Shown here piece by piece: positions 6,822 to 20,804 of a stretch of 24,750 nucleotides of DNA. The notes below the pieces were generated by a model that saw only the letters and a list, made by a program, of their open reading frames with translations, was not told where the DNA came from and did no database searches. The DNA comes from a virus (Duplodnaviria; Caudoviricetes), in IMG/VR virus record IMGVR_UViG_3300050195_000279, positions 1 through 24,750 of that record; one strand, given 5' to 3'. The translations under genes were made by a program, and so were the position numbers. The stretch's first letter is position 1. Each line of letters begins with the position of its first letter.

Positions 6822-7622
6822 TCACCCACCTTTTACCGTGTTTGTCAGTTGATCGCTTGTCATCTGAAGATCGGAAACTGAGGACAACGCACCGACCGTA
6901 TTAGTCGTGTGCTTGTGGCCGTTGAATATCGACATGAATGCCGACGTGACGAAGCTCAGCAAACTCTGCCCAGAAGATCCCAACGTTATCGCCGGCGCAG
7001 TCACCGAAGCCGACTCAGTCGCCGCCACCATCACATTCGCCGCTGAAATATTGGCATTCCCCGTCACATTGATATTCACTGCGCCACCGATAGTGGCATT
7101 CCAGTTCCCGCTTGTTGTGATATCAATATCGTGCAATGACGGATTCAGACCGATAAACGCCGCCCCATCATTGCTGCGCAGTTGCACAGAATCCCCGCTC
7201 CAACCGCTGATTTTGGTGGCCTGCGAGAACGGCCCGGGAATGGCAAAGCCATCAGATAGGTCATGCATCCGCAGCTCTGATTGCACCTGCACATCACCAC
7301 TCTGCCACCATGCATCAATACACCGCGATGAGAAAACCACCAGGCACTCATCACCTTTGGCGATCGGGAAAGTCAGCGTACAGCCACCGCCGCGCGGAAA
7401 TGTGACCGGCACATCAAGCAGCAACGGCAACGCTACCCATTGCGTACTGCCATCCGGGCTACGGACATTCGCCTTAATCGCCGGCTGCACAGTGCAGGTC
7501 AACGCATCAGCATTAAAACTCTCGACAATGCCTGGGAGTGCAGTCCACATTCTGGCTTGACGACCGTCCAGCGCAGATCGCAATCCCTCTTCAAAATCAT
7601 TATGCAGTTCTCGTTGATCCAT
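6822..7622 (-). CDS. Baseplate central spike (gp138/gpV-like)
   Basis: ALPGIV, LLDVPV.FPRGGG, GDECLVVF..RCID.WW and RMHDLSD motifs plus a C-terminal HxH (GHKH) iron site; GGAG RBS before ATG 7622. The longer ORF-track start runs into the RNA array terminator. Confidence 0.85.
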   Translation of the reverse strand: MDQRELHNDFEEGLRSALDGRQARMWTALPGIVESFNADALTCTVQPAIKANVRSPDGSTQWVALPLLLDVPVTFPRGGGCTLTFPIAKGDECLVVFSSRCIDAWWQSGDVQVQSELRMHDLSDGFAIPGPFSQATKISGWSGDSVQLRSNDGAAFIGLNPSLHDIDITTSGNWNATIGGAVNINVTGNANISAANVMVAATESASVTAPAITLGSSGQSLLSFVTSAFMSIFNGHKHTTNTVGALSSVSDLQMTSDQLTNTVKGG

Positions 7623-7642
7623 AATCCAGTCTCCATAAAGAC

Positions 7643-7668
7643 AAAGGGCTCCATTTCTGGAGCCCTTC
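7643..7668 (-). terminator. Terminator-like hairpin closing the array
   Basis: AAGGGCTCCA-GAAA-TGGAGCCCTT followed by TGTCTTT. Confidence 0.6.
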
Positions 7669-7999
7669 GAATGCCATTTCTGGCCCATGCCTCACCACAC
7701 CGGGCCTTAACATGCCGGGCCGTACCCCGCCGAACCACGCCACACCAAAGCGGACTGGGCCGTACCCTTGATGCTATTCGCATCGGTCAGCCCGAAAGCT
7801 GACCGCTGAAAACAGCCCATGCCCTGCCTAAGCCAACCTCGGCTCAGCCCACCTCGCCGCAGCGCACACAAACATAGCTCGCCACAGATGCTTACCGCAT
7901 CAGATAGCAACCTCTTCGAAGATGCTACCTGCTGTTGTCAGCCCCTACCAAGCCAGACCGAAACGCACCTAATCACAGCACAACATGGCACGCCAATCC
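7643..7999 (-). ncRNA. Putative guide-RNA array: three period-5 G(G)Y-NN tracts separated by conserved hairpins, ending in a terminator-like stem
   Basis: Tracts at 7999-7945 (11 units), 7883-7819 (13 units) and 7766-7687 (16 units). G at unit position 1 in 38/40 units, pyrimidine at position 3 in 39/40, exact GGY in 24/40. Each tract ends in GG plus a 4-bp hairpin. Confidence 0.8.
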
Positions 8000-8467
8000 T
8001 TACTTCAAGCCTTTGCGATACATCCCCTTCATCGCCGCCATCTTTGCAACAGCATCAACATTCTCACGACGCTGCTCATCGGAAAGTTCAAACACCCGAA
8101 TGTTTCGCAGCTTATTGCCGGCACTGCGAAATGCTCGATTTGCATCCTTCTGAAATGCATCCTCAGCTATCCGAGTCTGCTCCTGAGGGGGAACCCAGCG
8201 AAAGCCCTCTCCGCGAACTGACTGAAGCAGAACTGAGTGATCCCGCAAAAGCTCATTCTTAAACGACTCGATGTTAGACAGCCATTCAAATTGATGACTC
8301 CGAAAGTCTTGCGCTGTCATTTCCACTTCATCGCCCATTGTCGGCATACCGAAATGCTCGGCAAGCCAAGCATGACTAATCATGTCGCCATACTTGAACT
8401 CTCGCAAGCAGTCCTGCACCGCCTGCCGCCACGATGGATATCGAGATAATTCCACCTCGTCACTCAT
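8000..8467 (-). CDS. Hypothetical protein (155 aa) between the RAMP-like gene and the array
   Basis: ATG 8467 overlaps the end of the upstream gene; its stop abuts the first repeat tract; helical protein with a SVRGEGFRWVPP segment. Confidence 0.75.
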   Translation of the reverse strand: MSDEVELSRYPSWRQAVQDCLREFKYGDMISHAWLAEHFGMPTMGDEVEMTAQDFRSHQFEWLSNIESFKNELLRDHSVLLQSVRGEGFRWVPPQEQTRIAEDAFQKDANRAFRSAGNKLRNIRVFELSDEQRRENVDAVAKMAAMKGMYRKGLK

Positions 8468-9029
8468 ACTCCACCTCGAATCGACCGAAGCGCGGGCGGA
8501 ATTCGCAAGTGCCAATCAAAGAGCCGGCATCTGAGATTGTTTTTTTGATTTCGTTCAAATCCAGCACTTCGGGATTGAACGCCACAGTCAGGTGGGCGGA
8601 CCAGTCCATGAATACCGGCCGATACCGCATCAGCTTGCTGGCACCAATCTTTACGCCCCGACAATCAACAAACCGAGAGTCCGCCCAAAGATCTTCTGGA
8701 CTGTCTGGGCCATCAAACATTAATTTTGCCCGGTCTGTCTGAACAAGCGCACCCCGTTTCCATGCTGTGCCAAGTTTTTGCAATTTCGCGCCGGCCAGAA
8801 AAGTCGCATCAAGATTTTGTCCTGGAATAAAGAACCCGACTTTCTTATCCCAATACGCCCCAGCAATGAACTCTGATTTTGCGATCGCGAGGTGATCCTC
8901 ATCAGTCTTCTTGCGCTTGCCAGTCAATTCTTTGTGTAACTTTGTTTCCGCCGCCAATGGGTTAGCAAGGCGGTCCGAGTGCATCATCAGCGGCGATGTG
9001 CCGGTAATTTTCAATTTCAGCAGTTCCAT
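8460..9029 (-). CDS. Stand-alone RAMP/Cas7-like RNA-binding protein (Vipr-like)
   Basis: N-terminal beta strand LKITGTSPLMMH, central FIPGQNL, RPVF..W strand and C-terminal Gly-containing loop AGSLIGTCEFRPRFGRF, matching the RAMP layout; TAATG-coupled to Rha. Confidence 0.7.
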   Translation of the reverse strand: MELLKLKITGTSPLMMHSDRLANPLAAETKLHKELTGKRKKTDEDHLAIAKSEFIAGAYWDKKVGFFIPGQNLDATFLAGAKLQKLGTAWKRGALVQTDRAKLMFDGPDSPEDLWADSRFVDCRGVKIGASKLMRYRPVFMDWSAHLTVAFNPEVLDLNEIKKTISDAGSLIGTCEFRPRFGRFEVEYE

Positions 9030-9727
9030 TACATCCCTCCGTGAATTTTTACTAAAGCGGCCTCAAGCGTCGTCTCATGATATGCGTTCACAACTCCATA
9101 TCTAGCATCCCGCACCTTGTCGATCGGGATACTTTTTTCCCGACTCAAGGTGCCGGCCGCCCGGCCAAGCCGCTGCATATCACGCATAGCTAACTTGATA
9201 CCGCGCAACGCACAAAAACCCATCACGGTGAAGAAAGAATGCCCCTCCTCAAAAGCTGATTGCTTTGCCTCGATACGCTTAATGCTCTCTTGTTGAATTG
9301 CCTGCTCAGCTTCTAACTCAGCCTGCTTCGCTTTTATCTTGACGTTATCGACCATCAAAGCGACAAGTGCTTGCTGCTCTGGGGGCAAATCAGCGAGTGG
9401 ATCTGGTGCATTCAATTTTGCGCGCATTTCAAAGAAGCCTTTCACCAGGGCAACTTTGAAAGATCGAACTATTTCGCTGTTCCGCATAAATGCAATCACC
9501 AAAGCAGATTGCTGCTCGTTCAGTACCGCGAACTCGATATCCGCACCACCATGTTGACCTACCTGTCTTGGTTGGATTTCAAATCTGACCAAGCCAAACG
9601 ACTCCAAATCGGCTCGATGCTTGCGCACCAGCTTAATTACACTTGCATGATCATTTTTTGTGCCAGCAGCAATTGCCAACGATGTCGTGACAGCTTCGCC
9701 GTCTTTGATAGTAATCAAATCGCTCAT
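9029..9727 (-). CDS. Rha-family phage regulatory protein
   Basis: VTTSLAIA...HASVIKLVR...LNEQQ...MRNS..V..FKVALVK.FFEMR N-terminal domain; coiled coil, then a C-terminal domain ending YG.VNAYH. Confidence 0.8.
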   Translation of the reverse strand: MSDLITIKDGEAVTTSLAIAAGTKNDHASVIKLVRKHRADLESFGLVRFEIQPRQVGQHGGADIEFAVLNEQQSALVIAFMRNSEIVRSFKVALVKGFFEMRAKLNAPDPLADLPPEQQALVALMVDNVKIKAKQAELEAEQAIQQESIKRIEAKQSAFEEGHSFFTVMGFCALRGIKLAMRDMQRLGRAAGTLSREKSIPIDKVRDARYGVVNAYHETTLEAALVKIHGGM

Positions 9728-9900
9728 GCTCTACCTCCACGCATCGCAGGTGTCACTGCCGCCGATTTAGACTTGTACTGTGCCACCAACATCGCCAACT
9801 CTCGCTGATCTAGCGATAGATACAGGGACAACAGACTTGATTCGTCGAGCGTCAATCTGTTGGGGTTCAGATATTGCGGTCGCAGGAGGTGATGGCTCAT
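9724..9900 (-). CDS. Small hypothetical protein (58 aa)
   Basis: My translation: MSHHLLRPQYLNPNRLTLDESSLLSLYLSLDQRELAMLVAQYKSKSAAVTPAMRGGRA; ATGA overlaps at both ends tile the operon exactly. Not in the ORF track. Confidence 0.65.
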   Translation of the reverse strand: MSHHLLRPQYLNPNRLTLDESSLLSLYLSLDQRELAMLVAQYKSKSAAVTPAMRGGRA

Positions 9901-10286
9901 GCTGCACCTCCAGCCACCAAACGAAGCGATGGGCGGGTGCGCTCTTTGGCAAAACGTGCGACCATTCTAGGCAACTCTCGTGACAGGCACGCCTGATCAC
10001 GCGGATCAATTTTCTGAAAATCTCGGGCGATATGAATGCCTGAATACGCTTTCGTACCCGCCTCGATGGCATCATTTATTGCAAGATCGTAAATGAATAT
10101 GCGATTCGAACCACTCATGCCCCTGTAGGCACGCACCAAACGCGCCTCTTCGGCTGTCAAGGCGACAACTTCGGTCGATTGGCTGACCAAAATAGGCTTT
10201 TTCGCATGCGAAATTTGTTGCACTTCCGCTGATGAAGCGCCATTTATAGATTGCCCAGTAATGCATAACGGCTTATCATTCGCCAT
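9897..10286 (-). CDS. Hypothetical protein with repressor-CTD-like LTxEExxLxxxYR motif
   Basis: AGGAAGG RBS; LTAEEARLVRAYRGM motif; C-terminal RPSLRLVAGG. Confidence 0.65.
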   Translation of the reverse strand: MANDKPLCITGQSINGASSAEVQQISHAKKPILVSQSTEVVALTAEEARLVRAYRGMSGSNRIFIYDLAINDAIEAGTKAYSGIHIARDFQKIDPRDQACLSRELPRMVARFAKERTRPSLRLVAGGAA

Positions 10287-10318
10287 AAATCACCTTCCTT
10301 TTGCTAGGGTTGTTGATT

Positions 10319-10359
10319 AAAACCCCGAACCCAATCCGCCAAGATCTGTTCGGGGTTTT
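10319..10359. other. 12-bp inverted repeat (attenuator, terminator or processing stem) inside the Arc-Rha operon
   Basis: AAAACCCCGAAC (10319-10330) pairs with GTTCGGGGTTTT (10348-10359). Confidence 0.7.
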
Positions 10360-10363
10360 TCGT

Positions 10364-10525
10364 TTACTGCACCGCATTTCGCGCACCTTCTTGCTGCACC
10401 TTCTTTTCCTTCAATACCGCGACGATCTGACCGTTCAGAGAACGTTCACTATCTTTCGCAATTTCTTTCATCCAATTCGCCAGTTCGATAGGCATTTTCA
10501 GTGTCATGCGATGGAACTCTTCCAT
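10364..10525 (-). CDS. Arc-like ribbon-helix-helix repressor (53 aa)
   Basis: My translation: MEEFHRMTLKMPIELANWMKEIAKDSERSLNGQIVAVLKEKKVQQEGARNAVQ; beta ribbon plus RSLNxQIV Arc signature. Not in the ORF track. Confidence 0.85.
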   Translation of the reverse strand: MEEFHRMTLKMPIELANWMKEIAKDSERSLNGQIVAVLKEKKVQQEGARNAVQ

Positions 10526-10540
10526 TTTTCACCCTTTCTC

Positions 10541-10592
10541 GACACTGTTTTAGTGTCATGAGCAAAGTATCTTACGACACTGAAACAGTGTC
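10541..10592. promoter_or_regulatory. Two 17-bp palindromic operators
   Basis: GACACT-GTTTT-AGTGTC (10541-10557) and GACACTG-AAA-CAGTGTC (10576-10592). Confidence 0.8.
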
Positions 10593-10594
10593 AA
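10566..10594 (-). promoter_or_regulatory. Sigma70 promoter for the arc-rha-RAMP-array operon
   Basis: TTGACA (10594-10589), 17-bp spacer, GATACT (10571-10566). Confidence 0.75.
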
Positions 10595-10631
10595 TCATTT
10601 TTTGACATATTTTTCGTGCTATCTTCCGACC

Positions 10632-11132
10632 ATGGAAAAAGACCGCTACACACGAATTACTCTTCGCATCCCATCTGACCTGTATGGAAAACTGGTGTAC
10701 GAGGCTGATGTCACGAGCAAATCCACGAATGCCGAAATCGTGGCGCGCTTAAATGACTCATTTTTAACCGACGATCCATCGGGGCGCCTTCGCGAACTCG
10801 AATTAACTGTCGAGCACAATGAAATCATTGTCACTGCACTCACCAATGAGTTAGAACGATGCCGCCAGGTTATTAGCACCCAAGAGCAACTTATTGCGAT
10901 GTTAGGCGTACACCTTCGCATAACTGCTGAGCGCGTTCCCACCTCCGACGACCAGACGTCCAATTCACTAATGGCTGTCATGAAAAACTTTGGTAATGCA
11001 ATTGCTCATAACGATCTAAAAAGCGCAGCCATCCCAATGATGGAATTACTTAAACTTGGAACTGACCTCGGGATTTTTAACGAGGATGGCACTCCTGGCC
11101 CAAACCATCCCAATGCCCGCAATAAGCCCTAA
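10632..11132 (+). CDS. Arc/Mnt-family DNA-binding protein with coiled-coil C-terminus
   Basis: RITLRIPSDL...KSTNAEIVARL RHH signature; divergent from the small Arc gene. Confidence 0.85.
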   Translation: MEKDRYTRITLRIPSDLYGKLVYEADVTSKSTNAEIVARLNDSFLTDDPSGRLRELELTVEHNEIIVTALTNELERCRQVISTQEQLIAMLGVHLRITAERVPTSDDQTSNSLMAVMKNFGNAIAHNDLKSAAIPMMELLKLGTDLGIFNEDGTPGPNHPNARNKP

Positions 11133-11755
11133 CTCTCCTAATCAACACCCTCACCTTCCCACGAAACGCAAAATCCAAATAATTGTTTCGTGGGCTATCG
11201 CAAATCTGCAACACCACCAATTTACCGGTTCCTGTCAGGCGTGGTTGCACCGCAAAGATAATCACATCTCCCGCAAAAGTCGTGTGACATGAATCGCACA
11301 ACGCCCTTGAAACCCACAGCCACTCTACCTGCCCCCGCAAACAGATCAACCATAAGGAATTCAAAAACGTTGTGATTGACAATCGCACATGCGCCTAACT
11401 GTACGTAGCCAAGCGAAATATACACCCCCGATAAACCGCCGTTCATGGCCCATTTCGAGGGTCTTGCCATTTACCCGGCCCCGTCAGTTCGATGCATCCA
11501 TTTTGCAACAAACATCTAGGCGCGGTTGCACAATGAAAATGAACAACGACATTTTCTTCCAAGCCAAAAATTTTTCACAGGCTGGAAACGTTTCCCGCGT
11601 TGACACGAAATAACTATCCGCCAAATTCTTGGCGTTATATGCAATTTCCCCGGGGAGAGTCATGCACCGCCAAAACTCAGAGCAACTATACTTCGTCGAT
11701 CAGTCACGAAATGGTCACGCTGAGGGGTGTTTTGGGGGTTTATTGGTATAGGCGT

Positions 11756-11782
11756 AAAAAAACCCGCCTGAGCGGGTTTTTT
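11756..11782. terminator. Bidirectional intrinsic terminator
   Basis: A7-CCCGC-CTGA-GCGGG-T6 between convergent transcription units. Confidence 0.8.
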
Positions 11783-12402
11783 TATTCATCTTTTTCTTGT
11801 TCCGACCTTGATCTATCTGGTCGATCTGGCGTCCCTTGTCGAATTGCCTCTATAACTCGTGGCCCCAAAAAAACAGCGCAGAGAACGCCAAGATCAAGGC
11901 CCGCGATAACACCAGCAACTACGGGGCTATAGGCGGCGACGATCCCGGCCGCAACCAAAGCTGCGACTGCGATCGCAAACGCAAGATATTGCCCCCGTTT
12001 ATCTTTGGCAATTGCTCCATCCAAGGCTTTTTGCTGAATAGCATGCGAGTGCTCTTGGGCCTTTACCGCCATCTGCAAAATGGATTGACGCACGTCAGAT
12101 GGATATGCGTTGATCACATCGGGCGGCGGAAGGGGTCCCGAAAACGTTCTTCGCTCCGTTACCTCCATACGTACAACTTGGAGCCCAATAAGCTGCGCCT
12201 CAATCACTTCAGGAGAAAATCGCCCCTTCAACTCACGCAGAATCTGTGCACGCTGCTGCATCGGCAAATTTTGCTCCAAAACTGGAGTCAATGCCGCATC
12301 CAACTCTGCTTCGTCAGGCAACTGAGGATCAGTTTTTTGATGACTATTAGCTTGCGCTTGTGGCTGCAAATGTCCGTTTGGATCTTCTTGCTGGGTCGTC
12401 AT
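11782..12402 (-). CDS. DUF2335-family membrane protein
   Basis: FSGPLPPP...Y...I..MA...Q.H...RGQ motif followed by two TM helices. Confidence 0.8.
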   Translation of the reverse strand: MTTQQEDPNGHLQPQAQANSHQKTDPQLPDEAELDAALTPVLEQNLPMQQRAQILRELKGRFSPEVIEAQLIGLQVVRMEVTERRTFSGPLPPPDVINAYPSDVRQSILQMAVKAQEHSHAIQQKALDGAIAKDKRGQYLAFAIAVAALVAAGIVAAYSPVVAGVIAGLDLGVLCAVFLGPRVIEAIRQGTPDRPDRSRSEQEKDE

Positions 12403-12647
12403 TTATAATACTTCTTCGAGTTCCATTCACTCTTAGGCAAGAGATGTTCAATGCACACGCCAGAATGTTTGTTTTTTGAAATGTATGCATCGGAAAAGTG
12501 AACTGCTGCCTCGTCAAAATAGCTACCAATGCGCTGCACTGTAGTACCGCGTGGCATGTATTCCAAATAACTTCCAAGAGGAAAAACATCCACAACGCTT
12601 CCAACCACTTTGGCTGCGGACGCGCGACGGCTAGATTTTTCGCTCAT
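12399..12647 (-). CDS. Small hypothetical protein coupled to DUF2335 (82 aa)
   Basis: GGAGAG RBS before ATG 12647; its end overlaps the DUF2335 start. Confidence 0.6.
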   Translation of the reverse strand: MSEKSSRRASAAKVVGSVVDVFPLGSYLEYMPRGTTVQRIGSYFDEAAVHFSDAYISKNKHSGVCIEHLLPKSEWNSKKYYK

Positions 12648-12857
12648 TACAACTCTCCAGCTTGAATTAATGACTGCATATAAATGATAAGAATTCTTAT
12701 CTACAACTTCTGTATACGCAAACAATAGCATGAATTAATGTAGTACATAAATTATCTAGAGTTTGAACAGTTGGCGCTATAAAACATACCCACATCGGTC
12801 TGACATTAATCTCAGATATCAGTTGCGCTATAGTTACCCCCTCACAGAGGAATAACT

Positions 12858-13334
12858 ATGAAAAAAATACTGATTAGTATTTTTCTATCAGCAAGCGCCA
12901 CCGAGGCACTTGCGCAATCTGCCGCCGCTGAGACAGCCCCGTGGTTTCCAATAACCAGCGCAATGTATGCACTCTCCCCACTGGAGGACAAAAAAATTGC
13001 ACTTTCTGCCTCGATTGATACAAATACCCATTTGGTTGCAATAAAACTGATAGATTTTGGTGGTGCCTACTGCGCTGTTCGTGAAACGTCTGCACCAAGC
13101 TCGATATCCCCAATTTCCGTTGATGGACAATTTTTGAAATTTACGCGTGGCTGCATAAATGGCACAGGGATCGTTCAGCCGGAATCAGAGCAAGGCAAAA
13201 AATTCCTATTGGATAAAGTGCAATCAGAGAAGCCATTTTTAATCGATGCTGGAGCTAATGGAACGCTACCATTTGCATCTAGAAACTTCTCCTCGGTAAT
13301 CAAAAAATTACAACAAGTTCAGAATGCTTTTTAA
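12858..13334 (+). CDS. Secreted/periplasmic hypothetical protein (moron)
   Basis: GAGGA RBS; Sec signal MKKILISIFLSASATEALA; one Cys pair; AT-rich. Confidence 0.7.
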   Translation: MKKILISIFLSASATEALAQSAAAETAPWFPITSAMYALSPLEDKKIALSASIDTNTHLVAIKLIDFGGAYCAVRETSAPSSISPISVDGQFLKFTRGCINGTGIVQPESEQGKKFLLDKVQSEKPFLIDAGANGTLPFASRNFSSVIKKLQQVQNAF

Positions 13335-13335
13335 T

Positions 13336-13767
13336 ATGAAAAAAAAACTGCTCGGGATGTTTTATTTGCTTTTCTGTTTGGGAATGACTGTAGCAGCTGA
13401 TGCTAGGTCTCAAGCCAAAGGCCTTGAATCTTTGGAGCGTCAACCGGCATTACTGCCCGGCCTTCCCGATCTCACAAAAAATGTGTACCTGTCCAAAGAC
13501 TCATTGGCGTGCGTGAGTAGATACGAAATCGTTGGCACATCAAAAGCATTTCCACAAAGAATTGAAGACCCTCAAATAGTCGCTGCCCTGCGGAGTAGTG
13601 GATGCGCTTTTTCAGACAAGGAGATGAGGGTAGTTGTTGAATTACCCGACGCATCTTCTGAACTTTACCTATCAGAGAAATATGCACAATACGTTGGCAT
13701 ATTTTGGCGAAATCCGAGTGGTCAAATTTGGCGCGGATACACAATGATTTCCAATCTGCATAACTAA
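13336..13767 (+). CDS. Secreted/periplasmic hypothetical protein (moron)
   Basis: Sec signal MKKKLLGMFYLLFCLGMTVAADA; mature Cys pair; stop overlaps the convergent hub stop. Confidence 0.65.
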   Translation: MKKKLLGMFYLLFCLGMTVAADARSQAKGLESLERQPALLPGLPDLTKNVYLSKDSLACVSRYEIVGTSKAFPQRIEDPQIVAALRSSGCAFSDKEMRVVVELPDASSELYLSEKYAQYVGIFWRNPSGQIWRGYTMISNLHN

Positions 13768-14726
13768 GCGCTAATCGGTACTGATTTGCTCTGATCTGGG
13801 GCTGTAATATCGACGCCCAAACAGGTCAAATCAACATACCAAGCCCCCCCGCGAGAATCGCCTGAAAACTCGCTGACAAGAACGCGATAAAATCCCTGCG
13901 CAGTAGTTGGCACGGCCGATAGAACTTCAGCGCCAGTGAATCCCTGTCGCTGCATCGTTATGTGGGTTATATTTTCTTGGTCAATTTGAATCAATCGACC
14001 AATACGAATCGCAGGATTAAGTAATGAGCGAACCTTAAGTCCACTATCGTTAATGGCCTCAGGCGTGCCAACAAGACCGCTCGCAGAAGACAAAACAACT
14101 GCCTCACCAGGGCGATATCCAGTGTTTTTGACTACTGAAAACTTTCCATTTTCAATATTCCATCGATAGCCGTACTTTGCGGCCCAATCTCGAGAAAAAT
14201 CACGGGCGAGTCCAAATTTAGCTACGCCTCTTATCGTTTTTACTACGCCCAACCCACTGCCCTCGATCAGGCCTGTCGCATCATTCGCAAGAGGAAGTGC
14301 ATTGACGCCATTTACCGACTGTACTTTCACAATAGACTCAATAACCTGCTGTGGCGTCTGTCCAGACTCGATAGATTGGCAAATTACTGCCCATGCATAC
14401 CATTGATCACCATCGCTTGCCACGATATCGAGAAATGAATCAGTATTTCGCTCCCGTCCCGTCATGACTTGGACAATAGTCCCGGAAAAAATTATTCCAA
14501 AGTTACCGCTCTCATATCCTGCTTGCAGAGAAACTGTTGTGAATTCCCGTTTCCGGAGAGCCTCCGCAGTCTCTCTCTTAACGTTATAGATTCTTAGGTG
14601 CATTTTATTCGGCGTCTGCGCATCGCTAGCCTTGGTCTTGAACGTAAATCGCAGCTCAGAAAGATCAAGCCCTTCCGTGCCAGAGCTCACGATCAAATTT
14701 GCCCGGCGAATCCATTGATCACTCAT
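13764..14726 (-). CDS. Baseplate hub protein
   Basis: DLSELR..F, RIYN, LQAGY, IFSG.I, DGD..Y, GLVG.PE, LLNP.I and GDSRG..WY motifs; position after tape measure and plug genes. Confidence 0.8.
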   Translation of the reverse strand: MSDQWIRRANLIVSSGTEGLDLSELRFTFKTKASDAQTPNKMHLRIYNVKRETAEALRKREFTTVSLQAGYESGNFGIIFSGTIVQVMTGRERNTDSFLDIVASDGDQWYAWAVICQSIESGQTPQQVIESIVKVQSVNGVNALPLANDATGLIEGSGLGVVKTIRGVAKFGLARDFSRDWAAKYGYRWNIENGKFSVVKNTGYRPGEAVVLSSASGLVGTPEAINDSGLKVRSLLNPAIRIGRLIQIDQENITHITMQRQGFTGAEVLSAVPTTAQGFYRVLVSEFSGDSRGGAWYVDLTCLGVDITAPDQSKSVPISA

Positions 14727-20215: not shown

Positions 20216-20277
20216 AAAAAAAAGAAAAAGCCGCAGAAGGCGGCCCAGAAACGAGAAACCCGGCGCTGGGCCGGGTC
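20216..20277 (-). terminator. Two tandem hairpins after rha, the second with a long T tail
   Basis: ACCCGGC-CCAGC-GCCGGGT, then GCCGC-CTTCT-GCGGC-TTTTTCTTTTTTTT. Confidence 0.6.
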
Positions 20278-20791
20278 AGTGAAGTAACAGTGATGGTTGT
20301 ATTTCGGCTTCCAGCCGGATCCGCTCATGCTGCAGCGGCGGAATTTCCTTCTTTCGCTGCAGCATCAGGTGTGAGCCGAATGACGCCCGGACCTTCGATT
20401 CCACCTCTTTTGCGATCAGTGCCTGCATCTGCTGCCAGAGGTTGGAATTGCGATGATTCAATGTGTCGCGCATCCTGAAGAACTCTTTCACCAGCGCCAC
20501 TTTGAAATCGATGACCTTTTTGCTGTTGCGCATCAACGACAATAAGAGTGCCGCCTGATGTTCATTCAGCATTGCAATTTCCCGGGACTGCGTGCCGCCA
20601 TTCGTCACAAAGGGTGCAATCTGAAATTGCACCCCTCCAAGTTCGCCCAGTGATCCACTATGCTTGCGAACTAGCTGCATGACGGCCCGGTGTTTTTGCC
20701 CCATTTCTTGGGAAATGACTTCGGTTGAGGTCAGCGGTTCACCGTCAACGGCAACAACAAACCGAAAATTCCCAAAACTAATATCGTTCAT
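20276..20791 (-). CDS. Rha-family phage regulatory protein (second copy)
   Basis: TSTEVIS...HRAVMQLVR...LNEHQA...MRNS..V..FKVALVKEFFRMR. Confidence 0.8.
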   Translation of the reverse strand: MNDISFGNFRFVVAVDGEPLTSTEVISQEMGQKHRAVMQLVRKHSGSLGELGGVQFQIAPFVTNGGTQSREIAMLNEHQAALLLSLMRNSKKVIDFKVALVKEFFRMRDTLNHRNSNLWQQMQALIAKEVESKVRASFGSHLMLQRKKEIPPLQHERIRLEAEIQPSLLLH

Positions 20792-20804
20792 TCGAAACCC
20801 CAAT

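Follow-up and report, generated by a model that had tools for sequence, protein, structure and literature searches.

A third guide tract in a myophage type II VIPR locus matches baseplate-hub genes of related phages and probably targets kin prophages

VIPR is a recently described RNA-guided gene silencer that binds dsDNA on either strand and whose guides read NN pairs, skip one base at each wobble position, need no PAM and repress transcription, as described in the accessible parts of the primary reports (10.64898/2026.04.26.720920; 10.64898/2026.04.26.720927). The locus analysed here, in a 24,750-base virus record whose whole length we call the window, is a new member of this system; the opposite-strand, wobble-skipping dsDNA mechanism it points to is already known from VIPR. 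Like the type II system of phage SUSP1, it carries vipr-vap1 and, next in order, three vrRNAs, each made up of 10-16 GGY/NN units and a hairpin tail (10.64898/2026.04.26.720920; PDB 36PP), and it shares the 1-nt wobble skip, targets on both strands and, within the accessible part of that account, the lack of a self-target at 80% (10.64898/2026.04.26.720920). Unlike SUSP1, no upstream vrRNA was seen in the window and the Vipr is 42% identical, and whereas the targets reported for SUSP1 belong to a satellite (recombinase shown), those predicted here are tail genes of other myophages (10.64898/2026.04.26.720920). The locus also resembles the VIPR clade of P. fulva prophages, which is prophage-borne, of type II and aimed at other prophages; the targets described there are mainly lysis-lysogeny regulators (one prophage locus), whereas here they are predicted to be structural genes homologous to the carrier's own (10.64898/2026.04.26.720920). 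The solo vrRNAs of the SUSP1 family likewise carry guides against relatives with a self-match consistently below the non-self match, the lower self-match among relatives being reported for vrRNA-targeting guides; these lack Vipr and are directed at vipr genes, vrRNAs, satellites or REP elements in the part of the report available, in contrast to a full system matching kin tail genes (10.64898/2026.10.15.759431).

The window, which may be a fragment, covers a myophage's late region. It encodes capsid, sheath, tape measure, baseplate hub, spike, wedge, fibre and lysis genes, and an insert between hub and spike holds a Rha gene, a 189-aa gene, a 155-aa gene and, on the minus strand, three GGY/NN tracts. 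Individual features are listed below.

7634..7686, minus strand: vrRNA3 3' tail, a 4-bp hairpin and then an intrinsic-terminator-like 12-bp hairpin (7669-7642)
7687..7766, minus strand: vrRNA3 guide tract (tract 3), 16 GGY/NN units, with predicted pairing to the coding strand of baseplate-hub genes in kin
7767..7818, minus strand: vrRNA2 tail, three predicted hairpins
7819..7883, minus strand: vrRNA2 guide tract (tract 2), 13 units, sense to the hub coding strand, with predicted template-strand pairing; motif DIWAADGDEWY
7884..7944, minus strand: vrRNA1 tail, three predicted hairpins
7945..7994, minus strand: vrRNA1 guide tract (tract 1), 10 units, of which 9 inner units match 18/18 a tail-sheath gene from a different family of myophages (phrog_23)
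8000..8467, minus strand: vap1-like accessory gene (phrog_5926), homologue of the gene adjoining vipr in phage SUSP1
8460..9029, minus strand: vipr, RAMP-family effector (phrog_4652), matching SUSP1 Vipr (PDB 36PP, E 3.2e-45)
9029..9727, minus strand: Rha-family regulator, overlapping the vipr start
13764..14726, minus strand: own baseplate hub gene (PF22759, phrog_196)
14041..14087, minus strand: own counterpart site of tract 3, mismatched (19/32), with a one-codon insertion
14392..14429, minus strand: own counterpart site of tract 2, mismatched (17/26)

The Rha-family regulator is likely co-transcribed with vipr. At 10541-10602 an inverted repeat with 22-bp arms overlaps a sigma-70-like site at 10594 on the minus strand, which faces the Rha-vipr genes and lies alongside a divergent Arc-like repressor gene; this region is possibly a control region. 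A second Rha-family gene (20276-20803) is inserted before the tail sheath gene. Named close relatives of the hub come from Paraburkholderia, Caballeronia, Herbaspirillum and Janthinobacterium, and the listed runs containing the locus were all leaf-litter metagenomes (24/24). The genes and tails of the locus are intact, and the array was identical in contigs of 4 runs.

Judged from sequence, the tracts, vipr and the vap1-like gene together are a type II VIPR locus. The 189-aa protein aligns with SUSP1 Vipr over residues 1-187 (E 3.2e-45, 42% identical) and keeps H17, K33, R39, K82, R138 and R179, which are contacts named for the SUSP1 structure in the accessible part of its description (10.64898/2026.04.26.720927), while carrying the substitutions D177E, W178F and K88T; a single-sequence AlphaFold model was unusable (pLDDT 29). 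The product of 8000-8467 is 26.5% identical to that of the gene adjoining vipr in SUSP1 (E 4e-10), and vap is present in 76/81 vipr loci. The tracts of 10, 13 and 16 units, each with a structured 3' tail, fall in the range of 9-16 YNNGG repeats given in the published account as available. Two related VIPR loci, L055:11083-11212 and L060:11083-11227, carry tracts of 26 and 29 units, beyond that range. Tails of related tracts open with a perfect 4-bp stem in 130 of 154 cases, the tail hairpins being predicted from nested folds only; tails of the SUSP1 clade are characterised by a pseudoknot. All three tracts have predicted targets at 80% or above in other mobile elements, on both strands (tract 1 antisense, 18/20; tract 2 sense, 24/26; tract 3 antisense, 26/32), and none has a self-target at that level in the window, the best sites reaching 13/20, 17/26 and 19/32, respectively. 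A class 1 CRISPR-Cas array was considered and rejected: no direct repeat-spacer family was found in the window and no Cas family among the 18 proteins scanned. An Rfam search of 7500-10700 gave no match.

The first-pass annotation had read tract 3 antisense as a hub motif (GLxGxPE) landing in the carrier's own hub gene. Its description of the tract is accurate: 16 five-base units run along the minus strand from 7766 to 7687, 13 of them GGY and 15 GNY, the NN string, once reverse-complemented, agrees letter for letter with the one given there, and the own hub at 14087-14041 matches 19/32 bases, including 5 full dinucleotides, in codon frame. The match had been called weak on its own, rightly so, since a score of at least 19 is reached by 93% of 400 order-shuffled guides anywhere in the window and by 9.5% of 1000 when only the hub gene is considered, and tract 3 itself has four further window sites at 19. 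Given that 19/32 is background and lies under the 80% level used in the VIPR papers, the guide is predicted to aim at the hubs of other phages and not at the own copy. At 60% identity to the clade consensus (mean 80%), the own hub has diverged throughout, so that its mismatch gives no evidence of site-specific escape; such escape was unsupported by the excess-divergence ranks of the tract 3 and tract 2 windows within the own hub (45/304 and 156/307). Of two indels specific to the own hub, one is the one-codon insertion in the tract 3 footprint, which is found in no other hub protein (1/120) and lowers the match by about one base.

At the level of the hub family, by contrast with the self-match, the link holds. 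Scored against a profile of 119 hub homologues from which the own hub was excluded, the decoded tract 3 peptide gave 31.5 bits at STTGLIGVPEATQDGV, above 20,000/20,000 shuffles, and tract 2 gave 31.2 bits at DIWAADGDEWYNF, with 0/20,000 shuffles reaching its score. The decoded peptide thus does correspond to a conserved hub-family motif, as proposed, with the exception of its 'I' unit, which is probably scaffold. At the DNA level tract 3 scores 26/32 in 8 of 68 distinct hub genes, two of which (L081 and L082) had been retrieved by the tract 3 pattern itself, and the best of 1000 shuffles reached 23; for tract 2 the scores rise to 24/26, against a shuffle maximum of 20 and 17/26 in the own hub, which puts both tracts in one gene family, on opposite strands. 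With genome loci added, 8/93 hub genes are at 80% or above for tract 3 and 30/93 for tract 2. In five loci that were retrieved with tract 2 only, the hub gene matches tract 3 at 24-26/32. The 1-nt skip on codon position 3 was confirmed for tract 3 against hub genes, where skips of 0, 2 and 3 gave 19-20 only, and conservation under the tract in 34 close hubs is 0.91, 0.96 and 0.50 at codon positions 1, 2 and 3. All 34 of these foreign hubs score 22-26/30 read bases against 19/30 for the own hub, or 24-28/30 against 22/30 if G-U wobble is allowed.

The proposed search for the full tract 3 pattern returned no perfect site among viral, GTDB or metagenome sequences, and the best DNA match was 26/30 read bases. 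The exact 10-unit pattern including the terminal unit had 0 viral matches, whereas a 9-unit sub-pattern had 12 viral loci, 10 of which were hub genes. In metagenomes the near-exact pattern gave 0 matches and a looser one a single match (26/32), and the GTDB scan found two hubs, L088 and L089, at 25/32 each. The closest fit is at the protein level only: among 150 proteins, P0141 has 14/15 read tract 3 codons (the mismatch being Thr to Ala) and 11/12 for tract 2, as does P0153, and in a tree of 33 chosen rows the two are sister (97/96) to a four-row clade containing the own hub. A search of viral contigs with P0002 as the query returned one distant hub. In 4 runs compared with a kin hub, which gave short pieces only and carry no weight here, a non-self hub fragment covered the tract 2 site in 2/4 and the tract 3 site in 0.

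The antisense position of tract 3 had also been taken to imply recognition of dsDNA rather than mRNA. Tract 3 alone is insufficient for this, as an antisense guide could pair with mRNA, and the argument rests on tract 2: a sense tract can pair with the template strand only, so that tract 3 on the coding strand and tract 2 on the template strand together require dsDNA, in keeping with what is published for VIPR.

Tract 1 points to another gene. Its 9 inner units are exact in 14/14 viral matches, all in one tail-sheath family (phrog_23, motif TNSEAYTTMTNF), and the 15 sheath loci (L211-L225) comprise 11 distinct site contexts and lie in full tail modules. The window's own sheath has no match to this sheath family, and no hub was found in 11 records targeted by tract 1. 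In 401 genomes the tract 1 pattern had 2 matches, as did the control. Tract 1 as a third hub guide was rejected, 9282/20,000 shuffles scoring as well against the hub profile. The unit next to the tail behaves differently from the rest of the tract: the last unit of tract 1 fails in 15/15 sheath sites and that of tract 3 matches 0/34 close hub genes. Among 154 related tracts, those of L001-L080, 97 have AT and 21 have AA as the NN beside the tail, which makes it scaffold-like. The unit is probably unread.

We then compared the guides of other VIPR phages, using the best 80 of 166 Vipr-relative loci, of which L001 is a 99.4% copy of the window. Of the other 79 records, 76 were searched for the hub family (three apparent duplicates were left out); a full copy was present in 3/76 whole records (L010, L012 and L043) and a weak partial one in a fourth, many records being fragments. 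Guides were scanned against 53 kin loci with the last unit omitted, keeping only tracts that had at least 8 read units and a GGG-led tail. In the four hub-family phages 10/12 guides beat the best of 5 shuffles by at least 2 bases, against 1/117 in the other loci; the Fisher p of 3e-12 is overstated, since guides from four phages are not independent. The 10 matches are in hub (five), tape measure (two), chaperone, phrog_817 and spike genes, those of L010, L012 and L043 including kin chaperone, tape-measure, phrog_817 and spike genes, and 0/10 are in capsid, sheath, tube or wedge genes. The chaperone-to-spike block makes up 41% of the homologous coding sequence and contains all 10 (1.5e-4, for a block picked post hoc), while the hub makes up 10% and has 5/10 (binomial p 0.002), the kin loci used for mapping being hub-centred. 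Own alleles score below the kin matches for all 10 guides; in L043 two guides have margins of just 1 and 3 bases (own 16/20, kin 17 and 19). Guides at L010:11043-11338 match the VIPR prophage L012 in its tape measure (18/18) and chaperone (17/18), and the L043 spike guide matches the window's spike gene at 7363 (17/20). The cassette sits inside the tail module in 4/4 hub-family phages, adjoining the genes that its guides match in kin: between hub and spike in the window (7623-13763) and directly upstream of the hub in L010, L012 and L043.

We consider it probable that tract 3 is the third type II VIPR guide of this phage and directs a Vipr filament to the coding strand of the hub gene in kin prophages, likely silencing it, while the carrier's own diverged hub is spared. 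The vrRNA would be made and loaded in the phage. One Vipr would sit on each GGY unit, the NN pairs would be read in dsDNA and transcriptional repression would follow, all three points being modelled on the available descriptions of SUSP1 and P. fulva VIPR. The natural targets may be resident or co-infecting kin prophages of Burkholderiaceae, and binding inside the hub gene of a rival, with tract 2 on the other strand, could block tail initiation and the downstream tail genes. Kin prophages are the best reading because the best DNA matches are found within complete tail modules (5/5 checked among the top matches L084, L099, L105, L109 and L131, four with a capsid gene) and because complete prophages in Burkholderiaceae genomes match the chaperone and tape-measure guides of the relatives.

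A satellite that pirates tails and carries its own hub copy may instead be the main object of tracts 2 and 3, with complete kin prophages matching by homology only, which we regard as unlikely. The over-representation of the hub (5/10 matches against 10% of shared genes) could be explained by such an element, and chaperone, tape measure and hub account for 8/10 kin matches. In the accounts as available, the VIPR-targeted satellite of SUSP1 encodes a tape measure as well as a hub that shares 72% identity with that of the helper (10.64898/2026.10.15.759431; 10.64898/2026.04.26.720920) and PLE11 encodes chaperone, tape measure and hub (PMC12987554); the PLE11 and F5 satellites, carrying hub, tape measure and (PLE11) chaperone, thus hold the genes most matched here (PMC12987554; 10.64898/2026.10.15.759431), as possible targets and not as relatives of the system. 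Integrase-bearing lone-hub elements with no sheath or capsid nearby do exist (L155, L201-L204, L209, L235 and L245), and L201 is above background with 23/32 for tract 3 and 23/26 for tract 2. However, sampled lone-hub elements score 19-23/32 for tract 3 against 26/32 in complete prophages, a chaperone or tape-measure homologue was seen in 0/7 mapped lone-hub elements while complete prophages match the L010 tape-measure guide 18/18, and tract 1 matches a sheath gene in full tail modules. As elements in their own right, the satellite-like lone-hub loci (L201:4479-10593, L209:4130-12217, L202, L203, L204, L235, L155, L245 and L254) mostly carry an integrase together with primase or replication genes, and a tail fibre or spike is present in some; the L203 hub (L179) is sister to the hub of the VIPR phage L012, and a tblastx scan of these elements gave noise.

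It is very improbable that the cassette was acquired from an unrelated phage, a past opponent of the hub family, and survives as a relic with guides that no longer matter. Among the searched VIPR records, 73/76 are without a full hub copy, which implies that the cassette moves between phage families; against a relic, four hub-family phages direct different guide sets at kin tail genes (10/12 against 1/117), the genes and tails are intact, and the array is unchanged across the contigs of 4 runs. Slightly less probable again is a weak binding of the guides to the own hub that tunes late tail expression. The best in-gene own sites are in codon frame at homologous motifs (17/26 and 19/32), and G-U wobble raises the tract 3 site to 22/30, yet these scores are background window-wide, 34/34 close foreign hubs outscore the own one with or without wobble, and the available part of the published VIPR account has no self-targets at 80% (10.64898/2026.04.26.720920). 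A chance match, in favour of which only the background level of the self-match could be cited, is refuted by the shuffles, the skip specificity, the 24-26/32 scores for tract 3 in phages picked by tract 2, and the codon fit of P0141.

The kin-prophage reading of tract 3 adds a natural-target class to VIPR, namely tail genes homologous to the carrier's own, together with a kin-directed pattern centred on tail initiation. Guides directed at kin tail genes were not reported in the VIPR literature searched, the accessible parts of which leave room for some in the published supplementary target lists. As VIPR works without a PAM, self-sparing would come from divergence alone, and the matched own and foreign sites (19/30 against 26/30) are useful pairs for defining its mismatch threshold. 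The data further provide evidence for an unread tail-adjacent unit, and leads to lone-hub satellite-like elements in Burkholderiaceae. More tentatively, VIPR may serve this myophage family as a kin-exclusion device, silencing the tail-initiation genes of relatives, or those stolen by satellites, while the own alleles have drifted out of range; the chaperone, tape measure, hub and spike of the tail-initiation block would then be interchangeable, low-copy tail starters. If the kin-hub reading of tract 3 is true, the likely role of the system would be to shut down tail building by closely related phages.
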